From NCBI RefSeq assembly GCF_006345805.1, contig NC_043008.1, positions 69,936,001 through 70,000,000 of the forward strand: DNA of 64,000 nt, given 5' to 3'. The notes under the pieces were generated by a model that ran no database searches, was not told where the DNA came from, and worked only from the letters and a program-made list of their open reading frames with translations. Both the position numbers and the translations under genes were made by a program. Below, piece after piece: positions 13,169-44,089 of the stretch; position 1 is the stretch's first letter, and the number at the start of each line of letters is the position of its first letter. Source of the stretch: Octopus sinensis. Lineage: Eukaryota.

Positions 13169-15272
13169 ACCACTATATTTATCCACCCAGACACACACAT
13201 ATCAGGAAAGAAAATGAATTACAAGCATTATATTTAAATTCGTTGGTTTACTTCCAAATTCTGTATTTTCTTCTCATGATAAGAAAAAACCCAAAAGGCA
13301 TCTTTAAATTGATAACTAAATGGAAACAAAAAAACTTGAAACCTAAAGATACATTTACACACAGACACACGCACACAAGAAATACATAAATACATATATG
13401 TATGTGTGTATGTATTTCTCTGTCTGTCTGTTTCTCTATATATACACATACACACATATGTACACATGCATGTGTATACATTTACAGTTATATGTTTAAA
13501 CACAACTAAACTAAAATTCCTCAATTATTTGTACATTAATTTGTCGATGTTTGCATAGATGGAGGTTAAAGATATGGGTTACTAAATTTATAACAACTAA
13601 TTATAATGTGAAAAAAATCTGCAAAATGCAAAAAATATAAAACTTCTAAAATATGTAAAAGTGCAAAAATACAAAAAATACATATGACTGCAGATTCTAG
13701 AGTTTCGTTTATTCTTGCTTTGAAAATTAATCGAAGCATGTGGTTTTTTTACAGCTGGATGCCCTTCCTCTCTGAAACCATTCAGTTGTGAATTCAGTGC
13801 ATCATATCTATTAAGAAATAATAAAAAAATTTAAAAATGCAAAAGAAAGGAAAATGTTTTTTTTTTTTTGAAAAATGGTTTTTATGTTTGGCATGAAACC
13901 AAATAATTTGTGCACACTGAGTGGTGTGGTTTGGATGTAATTTGGTGCCAAGTACTTGACTGGTACTTATTTTATTGACTGTAAAATGATGCAGGGTACA
14001 GCCAACGTCTCTCGCTGGGATTTGAACTTAGAATGCAATAAGATGGAGCTAAAATCTCTAACATTTTTGAGGCTAGAGAAAAAAAAAATTCCTCTTAAAT
14101 GCAATCAAAAACCAAAAAGAGGAATAAGATATATGTTGCTTAATTAATATGAACAAAATAAATGCTGAAAAAAAACACCAAATGGTTATTTAAAAAACAA
14201 AATAAATATGAAGATTACTAGAAATAATTTTTGTTTTTCCTTAGTCTGGCACTTTACCATTTCTGCAATTCCTCTGCTTAATTCACCACATCTCCCACAA
14301 AATAGTGAGGAACATTAGAAGCAGGAAAAACTAACAAACATGAATGAAAATCTCTGGCAGAAACATCAGGTGCTTTTTTTTTTTTCTAATATAGCATTTT
14401 TTTTTTTTTGCATATGTTTGCAGTGTTGAGTCTTGTCAATGTAGACCTCCACTGGCTTGCATGAATTCTAAAATAACATTTTAAAATTTTACAAATCATC
14501 TGTCTTTGAACAGCCTTTTGGCACTAAGATGGAAAGGAGAATTATTGATCTTTTTCACTGTGGGGACCCTTTTATTAGCGTTGAGGTATGTGTTGTTTTG
14601 GGGACTCAAGAATTTGTTATTCTTTAGGCATAATTCTTTACTTGTTTTAACACCACCATCTGTCCCTTACTCCAAGTAGGGTTCACTCTGTTGTAGGTTT
14701 TAGGATCTATTAGGATCAGATGCCTCATATCTGAGGGTTACTTTCTCCCATTTTTCCAGCACTTGGAAGGCTCTGTAAAGAGTAATATGATTCATTCTTA
14801 GACTCATTTAAATGAAAAGGGGGATATTGCTGTTACATTCAGAAAACCAAGTATCATTTAGAAATGACAACATTGACTTGTGTCTCTGTGATGCACTGTT
14901 AAGGAGACATAAATACATACATTTGTGTGTGTGTGTGTGTGTGACATCATCATAACATCCATTTTTCCATTCTTCTATGGGTTTGACAGTGTTTATTGAT
15001 GCCAGTTTTCTCTGGTCTCATGCCCTTCCTGTTGCCAAACTTTATAATTGCCAAGCAGGGTAATATCTCCCCCATGGTCTGACATGTTTTCACAGAACAT
15101 AAGAAATGAATGACACCACTTGAATAACAGTGAGACTCATTTGCAACTATCACATATCAAGACTAGGTGACATTAACACACACACACACGTGTGCATACA
15201 TATATGTAGCATCGTCATCATCATCATCATCATCTTTTAATGTCCATGTTCCAGTCTGGTATGAGTTATTCA

Positions 15273-15817
15273 CAGGGTGCAGGGAATAAATTGTCATTCA
15301 AATTTCACAAAAATGAAGATATCACTGACATCTCATTTCAACAGATATATTTACCAAAATTGCATAAAAGTATCTTGAAATATTAAAGAGCAAATTCACT
15401 CAATAAAATCGCTATTGGCTTCAACCACAGCCTCCAGACGACTTCGGAACTTCCTGCAACTCTTCTGGATGGTCTCCTTGTTTAAATTATTGAATGCGGC
15501 CATAATCCTTGCCTTCAGTTCATATTTGGTGTTACAAGGAGTTGTTGGTCCCTCACTCAACTGTACCCCACACATAATAATCAAGCGGGGTTGTAGTCTG
15601 GGGAGATAGTGGCCAGATGTTAGGAGTGATGTAGTCACAGAAATTGTCTGACAGCCATGACTGGATTCTCCTGCTTGTGTAGCATGGTGCAGAGTGCTGT
15701 TGTCAAACATAGGATCTTCCATCAGCCAGCCTCTTGACCCAAGGCAGCACTACCTCCTTCTGGTACTTGATGTAGGCCTCCGCATTGAGTCTGAGATCGT
15801 GTGGGAAGATAAATGGC
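15273..15817 (-). mobile_element. Tc1/mariner DD37D (maT-like) transposon, 3' part, pseudogene
   Basis: TIR CAGGGTGCAGGGAATAAATTGTC at 15273. Frameshifted minus-strand translation gives QQ[D>H]SAPC...W....LDYYVWG...CRKFRSRLEAVVEANSDFIE*. The reconstructed spacing between the last two acidic positions is ~37 residues. Confidence 0.8.
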
Positions 15818-15861
15818 AACCTTACTAGTGCTGGTGCCATGAGAAAAGCACCCAGTAGCCT

Positions 15862-16375
15862 CCGTAAAATATATATTAGCAACAGAGACAATATTAATAC
15901 TGAGAAGTAATACTGATCCCCACTTAACAGTGGATGTTCTTTAGGAAAAACTATACTGTGGTAGGTATCTTGAGAGAAACTCATATCACTTACTGGTGCA
16001 AAGTGCACTCTTATTTATATAGTTAGTGAGGAGATAAATACCCGCTACCTCCAGTATTGAGACCATCAGATCACATGATTTTGACCTTTCTCGGTCTTGT
16101 TAATGATGGATGCTCAACCACTAGAGATAACAGTCACTTGTCTACCTGAAAACAATATATAGAGTAACAGTGCCAGAACTGGCACTGGAGTTGTGATTAG
16201 CCATTGAGATTGTTAAGAAATGTTTATTGGTGTGAGAAATAGTATTAATACCAAGAGATAATATTTATCCCCACTTAAGTGTGAGTGTTCTGTTGTTAAA
16301 ATTTTACTACAGTAGATGCCATGGGAGGTATTCCCGTATTGACTTTTGGTGCAAAATGTACACTTGTTTATATTG
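15862..16375 (-). mobile_element. About 1.5 tandem units (~355-bp period) with a decayed hammerhead (retrozyme or pLTR-like)
   Basis: 15862-16020 repeats directly at ~16215-16375 (shared TATTAATAC, ATCCCCACTTAA, GGTGCAAA). Hammerhead-shaped motif at 16063-16109 on the minus strand. Confidence 0.55.
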
Positions 16376-16525
16376 CTTTTACATGTTTGACATTGTGAAA
16401 AGCATCCAGCTGTAAATACCATGCCAAAGTAGACACTGAAGTATGATGTATCTCTCAAACCCATCAAATGCTATCAAACTGTCCAACCTATGCCAGCATG
16501 GAAGATGGGTGTTAAAGGATGATAG

Positions 16526-16740
16526 AAAGTGGCGAGCTGGCAGAAGCATTAGCATGCCGGGTGAAATGCTTAGCGGTATTTCGTCTGTCTTTATGTTCTG
16601 AGTTCAAATTCCGCAGAGGTCGACTTTGCCTTTCATCCTTTCAGGGTCGATAAATTAAGTACCAGTTGCGTTCAGGGGTCGATCTAATCGACTGGCCCCC
16701 TCCCCCAAAATTTCAGGCCTTGTGCTTAGAGTAGAAAAGA
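16526..16740 (+). mobile_element. SINE family B, full length, young
   Basis: CpG-rich consensus-like copy. Imperfect ~14-bp TSD TTAAAGGATGATAG (16512) / TTAAAAGATGATGG (16741). Inserted in the (GAT)n tail of a family D element. Confidence 0.9.
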
Positions 16741-17228
16741 TTAAAAGATGATGGTGATGATAAAAGTCTTAGTAGTCCTATATTTTAAGCACCCAAACAT
16801 GACCCTCCCTACCTTGTATTGACGTATTAATGTAAATCAGTCTCTGTATAATCATGACTTCAGTTACTGATCTCTTTACCAAAAATATGCTTTATCAGCT
16901 TTTTACATGGCTCACATTCTGTTAATACCTGCACATTTAATTCTTGTTCTTATAAGTATCTTAAGTGCAGTTACAACTAATTGTTTTTGTTTCTTTTTAA
17001 GTATATTAGAAGCATGAACAAGATGTTTATAACCACCTATGAAATACTATATTTATGGGTGAGGGATAGATCGTACACAGGTTGTCTAATTTGCTAACAG
17101 AACATCTAAAACAAACCATTAATTCTTGCTTTGCTGTGAGTTTCAAGTATTAGCTGGCATTCTATGACATGTTTCTAAATTCAGCAGAGAACACAATCCA
17201 GACTGGAGTCTTCTATATAAACTACTTG

Positions 17229-17272
<44 letters not shown>

Positions 17273-17274
<2 letters not shown>

Positions 17275-17670
17275 GTTATCCGTAATAATGAAGGGTGAAA
17301 TTAATTAATTTGAAAAATTATCAATTACACCAAGTTCTTCGGGCATGTAAAAGCCTCATTCGAGAAAATTTAAGTAATACTAAGCAATAAGGGTTTAGCA
17401 ACGAGTTGCCTTACCACATACCGAATTTAGAATAGCAGTCAAAGGGTTATAGCTATTTCTTCTACTAAAAAGGGAGATCTCAGTAAAAACTAAAAAAATG
17501 TATGATAGATTGCAGTCAATTCATTCTCTCTTACCTGTTGTGTCTGCCTTCCAAATGCTGTTTTTACTGAGATCTCCCTTTTAGTAGAAGAAATAGCTAT
17601 AACCCTTTGACTGCTATTTCTAATTCGGTATGTGTAAGGCAACTCGTTGCTAAACCCTTATGCTTAGTAT
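17273..17670. repeat. Fold-back element A: ~112-bp inverted arms, ~70-bp spacer
   Basis: 17377-17490 is the reverse complement of 17560-17670 with few differences. Flanked by (TA)n. Confidence 0.9.
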
Positions 17671-17931
17671 ATATATTATATATATAATGTACACACACAC
17701 ACACACACCACACACACATATATATATATATATAATGTACATATATATTGTACATATATGTATATATGTGTATATATGTACATATATATATATATGTGTA
17801 TATATGTACATGTGTATATATGTATATATATATATATGTGTGTATTTGTATATATAAAGATAAACTTAATTGGAAATGGATGCGTAACGTTCAGACAAAT
17901 AATAATATAATCTATATATATATATATATAC

Positions 17932-18553
17932 ACGATATAGTGCATATTTATACACATAAGGAATCCACTTAGGGTGAGATTCAACACATTATAGAAACAC
18001 AAAAATAACGGATAAAATTTGACAGGAATAAATTTGGAAATGAAAAATATTTACCATCTCGTACCCCTGACCAAATTGGTTTCTGATCTTCTTTTAGCAA
18101 GTTGGGGGAACTCGCAAGGTCTGATCTTTTCGGCGAGGTCCAACCTGGGGTTAAAACATATAAGACAGAAGACAAGCACTGCTACCTGTCTCCTGTTTAT
18201 ACGATCTAACTTTTCAAATTTTTCTGTGTAATCGCAGAACTGCAGGACTGCGATTACGCAGAAAAATTTGAAAAGTTAGATCACATAAACAGGAGACAGG
18301 TAGCAGTGCTTGTCTTCTGTCTTATATGTTTTAACCCCAGTTTGGACCTCGCCGAAAAGATCAGACCTTGCGAGTTCCCCCGACTTGCTAAAAGAAGATC
18401 AGAAACCAATTTGGTCAGGGGTATGAGATGGTAAATGTTTTTCATTTCCAAATTTATTCCTGTCGAATTTTATCTGTTATTTTTGTGTTTCTATAATGTG
18501 TTGAATCTCACCATAAGTGGATTCCTTATGTGTATAAATATGCACTATATCGT
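17932..18553. repeat. Fold-back element B: 622-bp spacer-less palindrome
   Basis: Centre CTG|CAG at 18242/18243. Arms are 311 bp with no indels and about 12 mismatches by eye. Confidence 0.95.
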
Positions 18554-18776
18554 ATAACTAATACATAGTCTTCTTGACTAATTTTTTTTTGCACGTTAGA
18601 CCACTGGAAATGTAAATTTTGATTGAATATTTTAAATTTAATTAAATTCCATTTCCCTTTGATATGATTGAAACCTAGCGGATCTATTTTTAGTGCTAGA
18701 GTCGACCACATAGTGGTTACTCTCTTATATTTATATATATATATATATATATACATACATATGCATATATATATAT

Positions 18777-19066
18777 ACACATGCATATATGGGTACAGGA
18801 CATCAACAACAATAAACAAAATGAAATACAAAAGCAAATGAGTTCAATACACAAACAATGAGAGAAACAAATGGAAAACAGGACAAGTAACCTAAAGAAC
18901 GACCCTTCATCACTTGTTGGCTGTCCATCTACTCCTCATTTTGAGCATTGTCATTCGATGCTTTATGTTACTTGTCCTGTTTTCCATTTGTTTCTCTCAT
19001 TGTTTGTGTATTGAACTCATTTGGTTTTGTATTTCATGTTGGAGACATCCTGTACCCATAAATGCA

Positions 19067-19071
<5 letters not shown>
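18777..19071. repeat. Fold-back element C: inverted arms with ~63-bp spacer
   Basis: 18777-18897 vs 18961-19071 (GGGTACAGGA...TCCTGTACCC; AACAGGACAAGTAAC/GTTACTTGTCCTGTT). Flanked by (TA)n. Confidence 0.9.
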
Positions 19072-19125
<54 letters not shown>

Positions 19126-19399
19126 TATATTATTACATGTATATATGTGTACACATGTATGTGCGTACATATATATATTATGTATAAACATATTAACATA
19201 TATGTATGTGTGTACATATGTATATTATATATATAAATATATATGTATATGTATTATATGACCTCCTCTCACAAATACTAATTGGACACAGACAATGTGT
19301 CATTAGCCAGCTGGAGGAGATATCTTCCTGGGTCTAAAAGCAACAATAACATCATCCTCTATGGGACCACCGCGTTTAGTTTGCAAATAGATTTTACAA

Positions 19400-19626
19400 A
19401 TATATATATATTTAATAGACACAGTACATGTTTTTATGTGCTACTGCTACTAATAGTTTCATATGTCGAGAAATAATTCATCAGGTACAAAACACATATA
19501 ACAAACAAAAAAATTGAATTAGTACATTATGGTATGTGGTTTGTGCCTGATGAATATGTTTGAGGCATTTCTCAACATATGAAACTATTAGTATTATGTC
19601 TATTAGTATTATGTCTATTATATATA
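19400..19626. repeat. Fold-back element D with a hammerhead motif in each arm
   Basis: TACTAATAGTTTCATATGTCGAGAAAT (19448) vs ATTTCTCAACATATGAAACTATTAGTA (19567). TTCATCAGG vs CCTGATGAA. Confidence 0.85.
19543..19597 (+). ncRNA. Minimal type I hammerhead ribozyme motif
   Basis: CTGATGA(19547)-ATATGTTTGAG/CTCAACATAT stem II-GAAAC(19581)-TATTA-GTA(19591). The 3' strand of stem I is poor in this copy but present (GCA) in the mirror copy. Confidence 0.6.
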
Positions 19627-19715
19627 ATTTACCTCTCACCAGATGGAGTCTTTATTTTGCTGGTCTTACCGTCATGCAACAGTACATTGTACACACACAG
19701 CTAGATTGATATATA

Positions 19716-20034
19716 CAGGGTGCAGTGAATAAACTGTCGTCTAAATTACACAAATATGAATACAACACTGGCATCTCATTTTAACAGATGATTTTTATCA
19801 CTCTTAGTACATGTCCTCAGATTGACACCCAAACATGGAGTTTCCAGTGTAAATCCCAAGCAGTACAGCATGTTGTTTCCAAATTTCTGGCAGAGTGTAT
19901 TGCACAATGGTGCTGTTTTCTCACAGTGTCCAACTGACGCTACCATACTGTGTAGTCCACAAAATCGAAAACAAACAATGCACATGCCCGAAATTAAAGA
20001 TATAAAATAGCAACACTTTACCCATCAGACTCTA
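19716..20034 (-). mobile_element. Internally deleted (MITE-like) derivative of the DD37D mariner-like element
   Basis: Left end TA|CAGGGTGCAGTGAATAAACTGTC matches 15273. The right part matches 27480-27718. Flanked by TA. Confidence 0.8.
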
Positions 20035-20493
20035 TATATAAATATACATATATGTCTATATCTACCCATTGCCCTCTGTACCTATACATCTCTCTCTCTC
20101 TATATATATGTATGTATATTTATATATATACCTTAGACTGCATGAATTTAAATGAAATAAACTCAGTTTATTACAGTTTATCACTCTCTCAATGGATGAA
20201 TGGCAGAATTGGCCTATGACCCTTTGACTGCTGGAAAGAATGCGAGTTGGGCATCAAATAACAATTTATTGACCCTGCGGAGGTGAAGCTAAATACTCTA
20301 GAATATTTAGCTTTGGTGTTTTATTATGTCTGTCACTCCTCTGTGACCACCACTTCTATTACTCTGAGTAAACCTAAAAGCAGGATGTTACATATATATG
20401 TGTGTGTACTATATAAATATATATATATATATATATACACACACATATATACATAAAAATATGTATGTATGAGTATACATTTACACATGTGTA

Positions 20494-20535
<42 letters not shown>

Positions 20536-21439
20536 TGCATTGTAGATAGTGCATGGCGTCAGGTGGTTGTACATTTTACATTTTGGAGAAAGAGCATATT
20601 GAAAACAAAAGAAATGGTAAATTTGTCCATTTGTTACCACCAGGCAGCAGATAATATCCCTATTCCAAAGTAGGAAAAAAAAAACGGAACAAAAAAATAT
20701 AATAAAAGGAAATAAAAAAAAGAACTGTTGCATGCATTTACTCCTTTACTTTGATGTGCACAGAATATAATTTCCTTTGCACACATACTAGTTGCATAAC
20801 GTGACCTGTTGCTGCACAGATGCACAACAAAACATAGAGAGAAAACTTCACTCTGCCCACAGGAGAAATTCATTCTTAGAATGCGAAATAAAACCGGCAA
20901 AATATAATAAAGTAAATACTTTTTTAAAAAGGAAAAAAAAAAACACATTAAAAAAGAAGCGTAAAAACAACTTACGTGTTTGAAGTAAATTTCAGCTACA
21001 AGCAATAGCTGGAAATAACTGTTATAGGGTTTGAAATCATTTGTGTGTGTGTGTGTACGTATATATATATATACATGCACACACAGAAAAAGAGAACAGA
21101 TATGCATAAATATAATATTGTTATCTTTATTATTATTAGTAATGATAATATTTACTTCAGACCCTCCCTTCAGCTGTCATTTTGTACTGGCTCTTGCTGG
21201 CAGAATTTATTTGTAAGAGTGAATTATTATTATTATCATGTACATAGTCATTGTTGTTGCCGTGGTCATCGCCATCTCCATCCTTGTCATTACCATCATC
21301 ATCATCACTCACATTTTTCATTATTCTCGTCCTTGTTATCAGCATCATCACCATCATCGATGTTGTCCTCATTATCTCATCAACCTAATCATTATTATCA
21401 TCAACATCGTATTTTTCTGTCATCATCATCATTACCATG

Positions 21440-21975
21440 GAATGACAGAGTCACTATAGTGTCAGACAGAATGTCTTGCAGTATTTATTCTCTTTACTTT
21501 CTGTGTTCAAAACCCACTGAGGTCAAATTAACCTTTCATCTCTCCAGAGACTAGAAACTATAAAATAAAAGAAGGGTTCAGTGAGGAGACTGATTCCTCT
21601 TCTCAAATTTCTGACCTTCTGCCTGAATTAGAAACAATTATTATTATTATTCTGTTCTGAGTTCAAATGCTGCCATAGTCAACTTTGCTTTTCATCCTTT
21701 CCAGTTTGATAAAATAAGCATCAATTCACTACTGCAGTTGATATATTTGACTAGCCTCTTCCCTCAAAATTTCCTGCCTTGTACCTATAGTTGAAAGGTT
21801 TATTATGATCATTATTGTTGTTGCTTTGCATTGCCAGATTTGCCAGTAAGAGGCAAAATGTTTTGCACTACTTAGCAATCTCTTCATTTACATCCTTACC
21901 ATTGAGCTTAACCTTGTCTTTCATCCTTTCACAGACAGCACCAGCTCTGTTTCTAGAATAGATATAATTGACTTC
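21440..21975 (+). mobile_element. Cluster of ~3 degraded SINE B copies
   Basis: GTTCAAA and CTTTCATC motifs recur at ~21505, ~21660 and ~21918, with (TTA)n linkers. Confidence 0.6.
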
Positions 21976-33154: not shown

Positions 33155-35282
33155 TGGGAGGAAGTCTTATCTAACTGATCGACTGGGGAAGTCTTATCTA
33201 ACCCCGATATGTCCAAACAATTACTATTGAGGTCTATAACAATTTCAATCTCTGTCCTACTTCTGAAATAGATGCTGAGAACATTGAGGAAGTTATACAG
33301 CAGCCTCATCAAATCAACAGAGGAAGTTGCACTGGCTACTCTTCCCAAAAGGAAGAGTAGGGGCCAGAGCAAACCTTCTAATTCCCCAATGTCATCGAAG
33401 CCAGAAAACCATCTAAAGTCTATATCACTAGCTTACCACCGTTCTCCATCCCCGTCACTGAAGATCCACTCATAGCTGCCAGGAAGAATCTTGATGAGGC
33501 TTACTTGAACGCCGAGGTCGAATTTATCAATGGAAAATTAGTAAACTATCGAAAGAGCACATTAGTAAAAAACACCATCTCGCCTGGAAATCCATCAAAG
33601 ACCTATCAGGCAAAAATTCTGGGTCATCAATTGGAATTAAAGGGGATCAGCTAAGAAGCGTTTAGAAAATTGGTCAACCCATTTTAAAAACCTCCTTGGG
33701 AAGAATGCCAAAATCCCTGATAACCCCACTCTCCCAAGTGTACCTATATCAGACACGCTGGACATCAACACCTCCCCTTTTACCATATTTGAACTAACAG
33801 CAGCCACCAAGCAACAAAAGCCTCGAAAGCATTTGGTCCCGACAACATTCCGGCTGTGATTTGGAAGGATGATAGATTTCACACACTTTTGCTTAACCTC
33901 TGCAACCACACACTTTCCACCTTTGTCGCTCCAAAGATTTGGCACCAGTCTCAATCATTCCAATACCCAAAAAAGGCGATTTGTCCCTCGTCACCAACTA
34001 CAGGGGCATATCTCTAATGTCAATTGCTGCAAAACTGTACAACAAACTGATCCTAAATCGTCTTGTCCTTTTTGTTGAACCTTTGCTCCGAAAGAACCAA
34101 AATGGATTCAGACATGGGCGCTCAACGCTGAGCCAGATACTATGCCTGCGCAGACTTATTGAAGAATCAAAAGCATTTAATCGCGATCTTGCAATGGTAT
34201 TTGTAGACTTTTCTAAAGCGTTCGATTCTGTAGATAGGTGCAAGATGTTTGAAATCCTTAAGCTCTATGGGATACCAGACAAAATTATTTCTGCCATCAA
34301 GGTCCTCTACACAGATACGTCTTCACCATCTTAACCCCTGATGGAGAAACATCATCTTTCTCGATCGAGGCCGGAATACTGCAGGGAGACACACTCGCCC
34401 CATTTCTTTCATCATTGTTTTGATTATGTGCTACGTATGTCAGTGATAACCATCTCTGGCAGGGCTTTGAAATAAAACCAGAAGAAGTTCCAGACACCCA
34501 GCTGAGTACTTGACAGACACTGACTTTGCTGACGACATCGCTCTTATCAGTGATTCTCTCTCCAATGCCCAGTCTCTTTTACAATCTCTTGAACAAGCCT
34601 CAAATTGTGTAGGTCTTTACCTTAATGAGACCAAACTGAATACATAAACAAGTGCCTGTCCAACAGTGATTGCATCATCCACACTCTCAACAGTGCACTT
34701 TAAATATGGTTTCTGATTACAAATATCTTGGGTCATACTATCATCATCTGGAAAAGACTTTCTAACTAGAAAGGGTATAGCCTGGTCAGCCTGTAATGAC
34801 ATGCATAAGATCTGGTCATCAAATCTAAGTAGAGACTTCAAACTTGAAATATTCAAAGCCACAGTCGAACCAATCCTACTATATGGCTCAGAAACCTGGA
34901 CGTTATCAAAGAAGCTTGAGAGGTGGTTGGATGGAACTTACACTCGCCTCCTTATGAGAGCTCAAAATCTCTCGTGGAAGTGCCATCCAACCAAAATGCA
35001 AATATATGGGAAATTACCACCTGTGTCATCTCTTGTGAAAGGTAGGAGAGTCCAGTTTGCTGGACATTGTTGTAGAGCTGGAAAAGAAGTAATTTCTACT
35101 CTTCTCCTCTGGAAGCCATCTACTCGCAACACCAGAGGGCGCACACTCTCCTACCCTGATGTAATCTCCAGGGATACAGGCATCCAGCAACAGGACCTCC
35201 GTAATGCTATGATGGACCGTGAAGTCTGGCGCAACATGGTAAATTCCATTGTCTCGACCACGGTCGAACAATGATGATGATG
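33155..35282 (+). mobile_element. Young 5'-truncated RTE-clade LINE
   Basis: TSD AAGAGTAC at 33147-33154 and 35283-35290. (TGA)n tail. RT motifs throughout. No endonuclease domain remains. Confidence 0.95.
33160..35274 (+). pseudogene. Reverse transcriptase of the RTE LINE, frameshifted
   Basis: KAFGPDNIP, PIPKKGDLS..NYRGISL, QNGFR.GRST, FVDFSKAFDS, GILQGDTLAP, TDFADDIAL (~34520-34546), YLGS, LLYGSETW, MMDREVWR. Confidence 0.95.
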
Positions 35283-37710: not shown

Positions 37711-37752
<42 letters not shown>

Positions 37753-37755
<3 letters not shown>

Positions 37756-38186
37756 AAATATTAGGGAATAAATCCAAACTTACAGGGAAAAATCAGATTT
37801 AGGATTGAATCCAATTTTATAGTAAATTATTATGTTATATTAAATTAGAGATAAAACCACTATTAGGCAAATCAAACAATGAAAAACTTAAGCCAATACA
37901 TAAAATTAAGTTATATTATTTTAAATATATATCAAAAGTATTAAAAGTTTAAACCTCGCTTAGATAAATATTTCAATTACCTGAAGATTGACTGTAACCA
38001 TAACTCGAATTATTATGAATTGGACAGCCATGAAACGATCGTAGTGTTTTACTCATTATCTTTTATTAAACTTTTAATACTTTTGATATATATTTAAAAT
38101 AATATAAATTAATTAATTTTATGTATTGGCTTAAGTTTTTCATTGTTTGATTTGCCTAATAGTGGTTTTATCTCTAATTTAATATA

Positions 38187-38187
<1 letters not shown>
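37753..38187. repeat. Fold-back element with ~120-bp arms and a hammerhead in the loop
   Basis: 37835-37952 is the reverse complement of 38066-38187. (TA)n on both sides. Confidence 0.9.
37975..38049 (+). ncRNA. Minimal type I hammerhead ribozyme motif
   Basis: TAC-CTGAAGA(37981)-TGACTGT/ACAGCCA stem II-GAAAC(38032)-GATC-GTA(38041)-GTG. Stem III is the palindrome ACGATCGT. Confidence 0.7.
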
Positions 38188-38218
<31 letters not shown>

Positions 38219-38563: not shown

Positions 38564-39427
38564 TTTGGATCATTTTAATAGTGTGACAAGGAATCCCATC
38601 TTCCACAAATAGAGAATCTTCTTTAATCATAATCATTTCACCACTCGAGAAGTTTGGAAGGAGTCCTTTCTGCAATATGGACACATTTATTTGAGTTTTT
38701 CTTTCCCTCATACTCCACCAGCTCTGATCAACCATTGCTCCAAATTGTTACCCAGACCATTTCAGAATAACTGCTGTGTTTCATTGCTGGTTGCAAGCTT
38801 TTCACATCAAATTCTTGATCACAGAGTCTCCAGACCCACACTCAACCACTGTTAGGAAACACAGCAAATCTGGACTTGTGACCCAAAATGCTAATGGCTT
38901 CTCTACCATCTCACTGGCCCAATTTTTTCCCTGTTTCATATTGGCTGGCCAAAGATGTGGCTTTCTTCTTCCTGCTCTGCCATAGTAACCAAATTTGTGG
39001 AGATACCTGACAGCTGTTCTGGGACTGCCATCAACTTGCTCTGCTATGTCAGAGGTCTTGAAATGAGGATTATTCTCCACACTTCTCTTAGCAAAGAGAA
39101 GAGTCCTGTCAGACAGCCCTGGTTGATCTGGACAAGGTGATGTGGACTCTCTGATGAATTGCACAATCACTTTATTAACTGTAGAAAGTGGGATCCCAAG
39201 GTTTTGTGCTATTTTATGCTGACTATATCCACCACCAGAATGACCCACAATATGGCCTCTTTGAAATTCAGACAGTTCCAAAGCTTCCTTTGTACATGAC
39301 ATGATTAAGCAGTCACATATAGAATCTAAAACATAAAATGTCAATTAATAAGAAATATAAACCTTTACGAGTTAGAATAAACAGAAAACGATGTTTTATG
39401 GGGTGTCTATTTATTCTAACATGTGTG
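38564..39427 (-). mobile_element. Tc1-like transposon, 3'-truncated pseudogene
   Basis: Terminus TA|[40 protein letters not shown]...[12 protein letters not shown] (HTH), [10 protein letters not shown], and FVEDGIPCH (degenerate QDNAPCH) just before the break. Confidence 0.85.
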
Positions 39428-43780: not shown

Positions 43781-43899
43781 TATATAAATGGAGTTAAATG
43801 CAGGTGTTATTCAAATTCTTTTACTTCCGACACATGGCAGTATAGGCAGTAATGTGCAATGTTTTACCAAAAGGAAAGCTATAATTGCCATTAGATATT

Positions 43900-44048
43900 A
43901 CTAAGGGTGTTAGAAACACCTACATTGCTCAAAATAAGAGCTAAACCGGGCAATTACAAACCCTGTTTGTATGTATACAATTACGTGGTTTGACTGCAGC
44001 ATTAGAGCATTTATTTCCAGCGATGTAGGTGTTTCTAACACCCTTAGT
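43900..44048. repeat. Fold-back element with 38-bp arms
   Basis: ACTAAGGGTGTTAGAAACACCTACATTGCT (43900) vs AGCGATGTAGGTGTTTCTAACACCCTTAGT (ends 44048). Followed by (TA)n. Confidence 0.85.
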
Positions 44049-44049
44049 C

Positions 44050-44089
<40 letters not shown>

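Follow-up and report, generated by a model that had tools for sequence, protein, structure and literature searches.

A palindrome at 17932..18553 of the Octopus sinensis window, by which we mean the whole 64-kb stretch of DNA analysed, is a real, aged structure. It very probably records one insertion, likely made in a single event by a Penelope-type reverse transcriptase (RT)/endonuclease acting in trans, in which two 5′-truncated copies of a repeat unit lie head to head in a TA microsatellite. The palindrome is ordinary for this genome, as head-to-head copies are routine in the repeat family concerned.

Repeat finding and arm alignment give arms of 17932-18242 and 18243-18553, which pair without indels and with exactly 12 mismatches (96%), where the original prediction had counted about 12 over 311-bp arms. 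The palindrome had also been called spacer-less, which does not strictly hold, because one pair of mismatches falls just 4-5 bases away from the centre, leaving effective arms of 17932-18237 and 18248-18553 and an effective loop of ~10 nt (18238-18247). As to the other 10 mismatches, six are CpG transitions when the contexts are read by eye, and four of nine are so under a stricter automatic rule; the original prediction had put the share at roughly half. Polarised against 54 projected family copies, the arm-specific changes are four on the left and six on the right; ten differences have been gathered by the arms with zero indels. The whole palindrome folds with z = −56 relative to 20 shuffles.

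Fold-back chimeras are a known error type of long reads, and an assembly or chimeric-read artefact could look like this. On the other hand, the ten differences between the arms are CpG-rich, the insertion ends are asymmetric and typical of the family, and contigs spanning the centre occur in three of the four public runs examined, from three studies, reaching 31 or more letters to either side and having a depth of 5.6-7, corresponding to a single copy. The contigs from run X2 (144 nt, 18171-18314, depth 7) and run X3 (78 nt, 18196-18273, depth 5.6) have no differences, and that from run X5 (70 nt, 18208-18277, depth 7) has one, a variant of its own; run X1 has no centre-spanning contig among the matches listed. 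One of the centre-spanning runs may be the assembly's own source, and an artefact is refuted unless all three come from the source sample. We consider it vanishingly improbable, and the earlier claim of a real structure rather than a chimeric read stands.

The inverted repeat lies where it had been placed, but the insertion runs 115 bp further, to 18668. On the left it follows a (TA)n target tract (17913..17930). The left arm (17932..18237, minus strand) is an inverted, 5′-truncated unit copy, whose 3′ end is a fixed family site termed site A (..TATCGT) and whose 5′ end is 166 nt upstream of a predicted hammerhead cut. The right arm (18244..18553, plus strand) is, by arm and family comparison, a direct unit copy up to site A that starts 175 nt upstream of the cut, and in this arm only the unit continues to a second fixed site, site B, as a 115-bp tail (18554..18668, plus strand). 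Each arm contains a degenerate type I hammerhead, the right copy at 18346..18422 (plus strand), assigned from a 65-row alignment, pair counts and private variants, and its mirror on the left at 18063..18139 (minus strand), assigned from alignment and private variants. Between the arms is the head-to-head junction with its 10-nt loop (18238..18247), of which 18238-18243 is not collinear with the family unit. Both arms begin at a small family hairpin, CTGCG-N4-CGCAG (18248..18261, plus strand), evident in the sequence and in the arm fold, which could possibly have served as microhomology for joining the arms. Abutting site B is a 3′-terminal, 5′-truncated piece of another hammerhead family, younger than the first and with a 502-bp unit (18669..18734, plus strand), and a (TA)n tract (18735..18777) forms the right end of the composite insertion. 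The window copy amounts to 1.2 + 0.6 units with a broken hammerhead core.

The arm is a dispersed repeat with 979 first-look candidates genome-wide (40 scored, 54 matches), and the remaining half of the unit has 873, in a host genome of 2.7 Gb that is rich in microsatellites. With a tandem period of 498-510 bp in five natural dimers, the family consists of hundreds of copies of a non-coding, hammerhead-bearing tandem unit of ~500 bp. No description of it was found in the open-access papers searched. Family loci were sampled from BLAST top matches and from searches with two exact patterns, which matched 116 and 329 times and of which the first 100 listed places were used, and after removal of duplicates by sequence this sample of the family comprised 172 loci. 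Among their 308 segment 3′ ends, 131 are at site A, 129 at site B, which is about 113-124 bp beyond site A in the family and 115 bp in the window, and 48 elsewhere. TA/AT runs follow 107 of the 131 site A ends and 107 of the 129 site B ends (214/260 together). The 5′ ends are scattered, and variable 5′ truncation and partial tandems are present. We set aside the idea of a TATA/initiator-like promoter around unit position 120-150, since 5′ ends there are not enriched in an unbiased sample. A MITE or foldback DNA transposon was rejected, since inner breakpoints and arm lengths vary from copy to copy, many copies have no inversion and the units are tandem; constant terminal inverted repeats common to all copies are absent from the family.

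The 172 loci contain 102 head-to-head junctions. As was to be checked, the arm has hundreds of dispersed copies, and others are palindromic too. The stem is at least 40 bp in 88 junctions, and the loop is at most 20 nt in 20 of these 88. Palindromes with a short loop are frequent in the family, which makes this structure unremarkable. Its 10-nt loop, the shortest of 23 BLAST-selected loci, was rejected as an extreme, as pattern-sampled loci have many short loops. The window copy is distinctive for arm length alone: both arms traverse the lesioned hammerhead, and the 309-bp stem is the longest among the 20 short-loop junctions, the next being 170 bp.

Both ends are at A or B in 76 of the 102 junctions, and 73 of these 76 have one arm at each site, where 50% would be expected if the ends were independent (P = 1e-18). 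The two 5′ ends are at most 20 nt apart in 21 of the 76, against a permutation mean of 9.1 (P = 5e-5). Nesting could bear on a one-cDNA route with the same element and enzyme, in which the second arm arises when the cDNA snaps back at the CTGCG-N4-CGCAG hairpin, primes itself and then joins the target at site A; self-priming has been proposed for head-to-head Penelope palindromes (PMC3846280, in the part accessible). At this locus the left arm falls entirely within the span of the right copy and a hairpin lies at the junction, while short loops are in excess across the family and 37 of the 62 junctions classed for nesting are nested. The other 25 are non-nested, and the arm reaching further 5′ is about equally often A-ended and B-ended (32 vs 35), which needs two cDNAs, because one cDNA folding back cannot make non-nested junctions. 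For this single locus we give one-cDNA fold-back an outside chance. The bias toward A plus B, the close 5′ ends and the non-nested junctions fit two target strands priming one RNA at two sites, with both cDNAs often halting at a common point and then being joined by microhomology.

Insertions of PLEs (Penelope-like elements) are described with an inverted 5′-truncated copy, a one-sided tail and junction palindromes in accessible sections of PMC8557442 and PMC3846280, and according to the available text of PMC11167929, a PLE protein in purified form can nick and extend each of the two strands and begins at two positions on the RNA, by which the tail is defined. For the window, we propose that the enzyme would have nicked both strands of the (TA)n tract, and each 3′ end would have primed cDNA on one RNA, one at site A (17932/18553) and the other at site B (18668), the two priming sites leaving the tail on one arm only. 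Both cDNAs would have passed the hammerhead on an uncleaved template, as the two ribozyme lesions are found in one arm as in the other. They would have ended no more than about 9 nt apart, at the small hairpin, and been joined by microhomology, and afterwards the arms would have diverged neutrally by 10 substitutions, mostly CpG decay. The earlier idea of a head-to-head pLTR insertion survives in that family data argue for a Penelope-type head-to-head insertion with a hammerhead, but ‘pLTR’ describes the layout and such parentage was found at none of 236 loci.

Alternatively, a single copy could have been duplicated and inverted, or the arms homogenised, by hairpin/cruciform repair after insertion. 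Two variants are confined to the two arms, with no further occurrence genome-wide, and four substitutions and one deletion occur in both arms while being rare among the 54 projected copies, all of which would suit such repair. Yet the end of the left arm coincides with family site A in (TA)n, there is no duplication of host flank, and the window ratio of shared to arm-specific variants (1:9) equals the family average (13:115) under one rule. The CpG share is 2/11 for shared and 16/99 for arm-specific variants (P = 1.0), which bears neither way on whether the shared variants predate insertion. Repair is a very unlikely origin, and we retain the insertion of two cDNAs.

The hammerhead elements lie where the original prediction had put its hammerhead-like 3′ half, GATC/GATC stem and degenerate core, as judged from sequence and alignment. 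In the right arm, stem I is 18346-51/18417-22, the core 18352-57, the stem II GATC 18359-62, GAAAC 18402-06 and GTC 18414-16, with the predicted cut between 18416 and 18417. Both arms show U4C, which is a subfamily trait, a missing G8 and a broken first stem I pair. The G8 loss and the stem I break each have two exact matches genome-wide, which are the two arms, while the intact motif has 24. U4C is reported to reduce hammerhead activity strongly in vitro (PMC3088659, accessible text). With no intact CUGANGA core and closed stem I, the ribozyme of the window copy is predicted to be dead in both arms.

Across the family, 65 natural copies of three subfamilies were aligned, omitting 10 of 75 full motifs (second copies from one locus, plus two copies with internal deletions). 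The sought homologues with a hammerhead core exist: the core is CTGAAGA in 29/65 and CCGAAGA in 17/65, GAAA is present in 63/65, and the cut triplet is kept. The stem I pair adjoining the core pair changes from T-A (36) to C-G (23) in step with the U4C change. In the named structure, 87.4% of cells are paired, compared with 82.7% when shuffled and 28-41% when slid. Double-sided changes fill 90 cells against 38 in shuffles (0/500), a figure inflated by the relatedness of the copies, and the number of covarying pairs in the 65-row alignment is not above that in shuffles (100/500). Because the counts follow subfamily splits, the covariation represents few independent events. These comparisons support, with covariation, one putative type I hammerhead per unit.

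An older copy, L084, folds as a three-way hammerhead, unlike young copies and the arms in the window. With RNAalifold, stem I and the distal part of helix II are retained, but an alternative hairpin near the cut is preferred over stem III and the stem II base. Rfam reports no hammerhead in 15000-21500 or in the arm, giving only microsatellite-driven miRNA matches, and none in an older family copy with canonical core either; the hammerhead of the second family (502-bp unit) scores 25.4 bits, below the 34-bit threshold. A scan of the window unit for the CTGANGA core found none, and the young subfamily reads CCGAAGA.

If the ribozyme acts in the family, cleaved RNA could show up as 5′ ends at the cut. 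Among the 99 different 5′ ends with an anchor close to site A, nine fall in the interval from −4 to +6 around the predicted cut. The expectation there is 2.4 from the downstream rate (P = 0.0008) or 3.2 from the nearest 56 nt (P = 0.006), the cut site having been predicted beforehand and the −4 to +6 limits chosen after the data were seen. The three densest 10-nt intervals of 5′ ends are those at the cut, and past the cut the truncation rate per base falls from 0.0065 to about 0.004. A second sample, overlapping in part with the first, has 99 anchored segments, of which 30 end at most 27 nt from a pattern starting 24 nt past the cut and six in the next 25 nt. The two window arms begin well upstream of the cut, as expected for an uncleaved template. 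The pile-up hints, from genomic sequence, that cleaved RNA may be copied in vivo.

In vitro, unprocessed RNA was dominant and no reads ended at the hammerhead cut, according to the accessible portion of PMC11167929, to which the excess at the cut is a modest counterpoint. Nothing further on 5′ ends at a hammerhead cut was found in the open-access papers searched. Tentatively, and with confidence a little short of even, we suggest that the insertions record Penelope-type transposition in vivo, with one RNA primed at two fixed sites by both strands, many templates being hammerhead 3′ cleavage products and the window copy serving as a ribozyme-null control. Were this so, unprocessed RNA would not be the main substrate in vivo, against that in vitro report as far as its text is available; the lesions would have let both cDNAs pass the cut, giving the longest short-loop palindrome in the sample; and the U4C subfamily would have gone on spreading with a weakened ribozyme.

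A candidate partner of the ~500-bp unit is an abundant genomic element (18,453 candidates) with open frames of up to 850 aa, which encodes an RT (PF00078, above cut-off) and, behind a CX5CXXC linker, matches GIY-YIG weakly at the C-terminus. Its two alternative ends, some 40 bp apart, lie in (TA)n, and a minimal hammerhead motif of the U3-A8 type is present in the 3′ region of 27 out of 30 copies. That motif (L103-L136, e.g. L133:4576-4615) has a 5-bp stem I and a 2-bp covarying stem II; a U3-A8 hammerhead variant is described in the accessible part of PMC4209133. The element and the unit have only a 15-nt word in common (P = 0.0025, Markov resampling). A tblastn search with the genome's PLE protein gave no match in the 64-kb window; matches occur in 4/236 family loci, and the unit is the terminal repeat of an ORF in 0/236. 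The unit is likely a free non-autonomous, retrozyme-like repeat moved by a PLE enzyme in trans. At one locus, L164 (minus strand, about 1470-2800), the family unit runs straight into the middle of another PLE-like RT/endonuclease region on the same strand, with 32% identity to the abundant element, by template switch or nested insertion.

Of 46 matches to the 18669-18734 fragment (812 candidates), 30 extend across the full 64 bp at 100%, and its young family (L061-L072) has many identical copies, head to head in 7/10 loci. At 17281-17670 there is a head-to-head insertion of a third family (377 candidates) with a ~600-bp tandem unit and a canonical CTGAAGA type I hammerhead, the sense arm of which starts about 9 nt past the predicted cut. 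More inverted repeats flanked by TA, each with a short loop and in many cases one arm longer than the other, lie at 18790-19060, 37750-38191, 43880-44050 and 19448-19593 and likely arose by the same insertion route. The frames among 33897-35274, 15396-16014, 38802-39344 and 16502-16743 resemble what we take to be remnants from a LINE RT and two Tc1/mariner transposases, and a dispersed SINE-like repeat (families D9-D16) is listed with them.

At the rate implied by a divergence of 0.09 in 25 million years (available text of PMC13282606), the insertion would be roughly 4.5 million years old (10 differences/306 bp), or about 2 without CpG sites, within a range of 2-5. If read through by a host transcript, it is predicted to form a dsRNA stem of ~306 bp. 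None of the contigs listed from three putative RNA runs has the private variants of the locus, which says nothing either way on its expression. Contigs of 452 and 478 nt from X10 and X12 (depth 129 and 85), both putative RNA runs, cover nearly the full unit of another family copy, with 16-17 differences from the window locus and ends that resemble locus L005.

The locus itself is minor, one of many such insertions, and what is new is one more retrozyme-like family inserted in Penelope style, the layout being already known. The hundreds of independent insertions provide statistics on Penelope-like steps that still await validation, namely how the second strand is primed, how inverted copies originate and what part the hammerhead plays. 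Moreover, the route routinely seeds long near-perfect palindromes, potential substrates for dsRNA and editing that can persist for millions of years. Octopus-type animals are a group known for heavy A-to-I editing.

The comparisons with known systems given here hold for the accessible parts of the papers cited. Metazoan non-LTR retrozymes (PMC7229834; bioRxiv 10.64898/2026.07.22.740005) likewise have non-coding tandem units, one type I hammerhead each with a short stem III and a palindromic loop, low GC and dispersed copies, and at the family level the non-coding tandem unit with one type I hammerhead is present here too. In contrast, the unit is ~500 bp rather than the published 150-450 bp or so, occurs mostly as monomers and partial tandems and has a U4C core in its youngest subfamily. 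The inverted insertions of the family are not described for retrozymes in the accessible text of those two sources. With PLE minimal hammerheads (PMC4209133) the motif shares the extra base after A9, the G10.1-C11.1 pair, the palindromic loop III and the closeness of motifs on opposite strands, but it has an extra A before GAAA and a long helix II with an internal loop, and the window copy is without G8. With endonuclease-bearing PLE insertions (PMC8557442, PMC3846280, PMC11167929) the match lies in 5′ truncation, partial tandems, the head-to-head inverted copy, a tail at one end, two RT start sites, microsatellite/AT-rich targets and a hammerhead upstream of the start sites, whereas the family unit has no ORF and its tail is 113-124 bp instead of 30-40 bp. 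The window element does not have the ORF with RT and GIY-YIG of an autonomous PLE; it has the traits of a PLE-mobilised element, namely variable 5′ truncation with partial tandems, a head-to-head inverted copy and two fixed 3′ ends with a one-sided tail.
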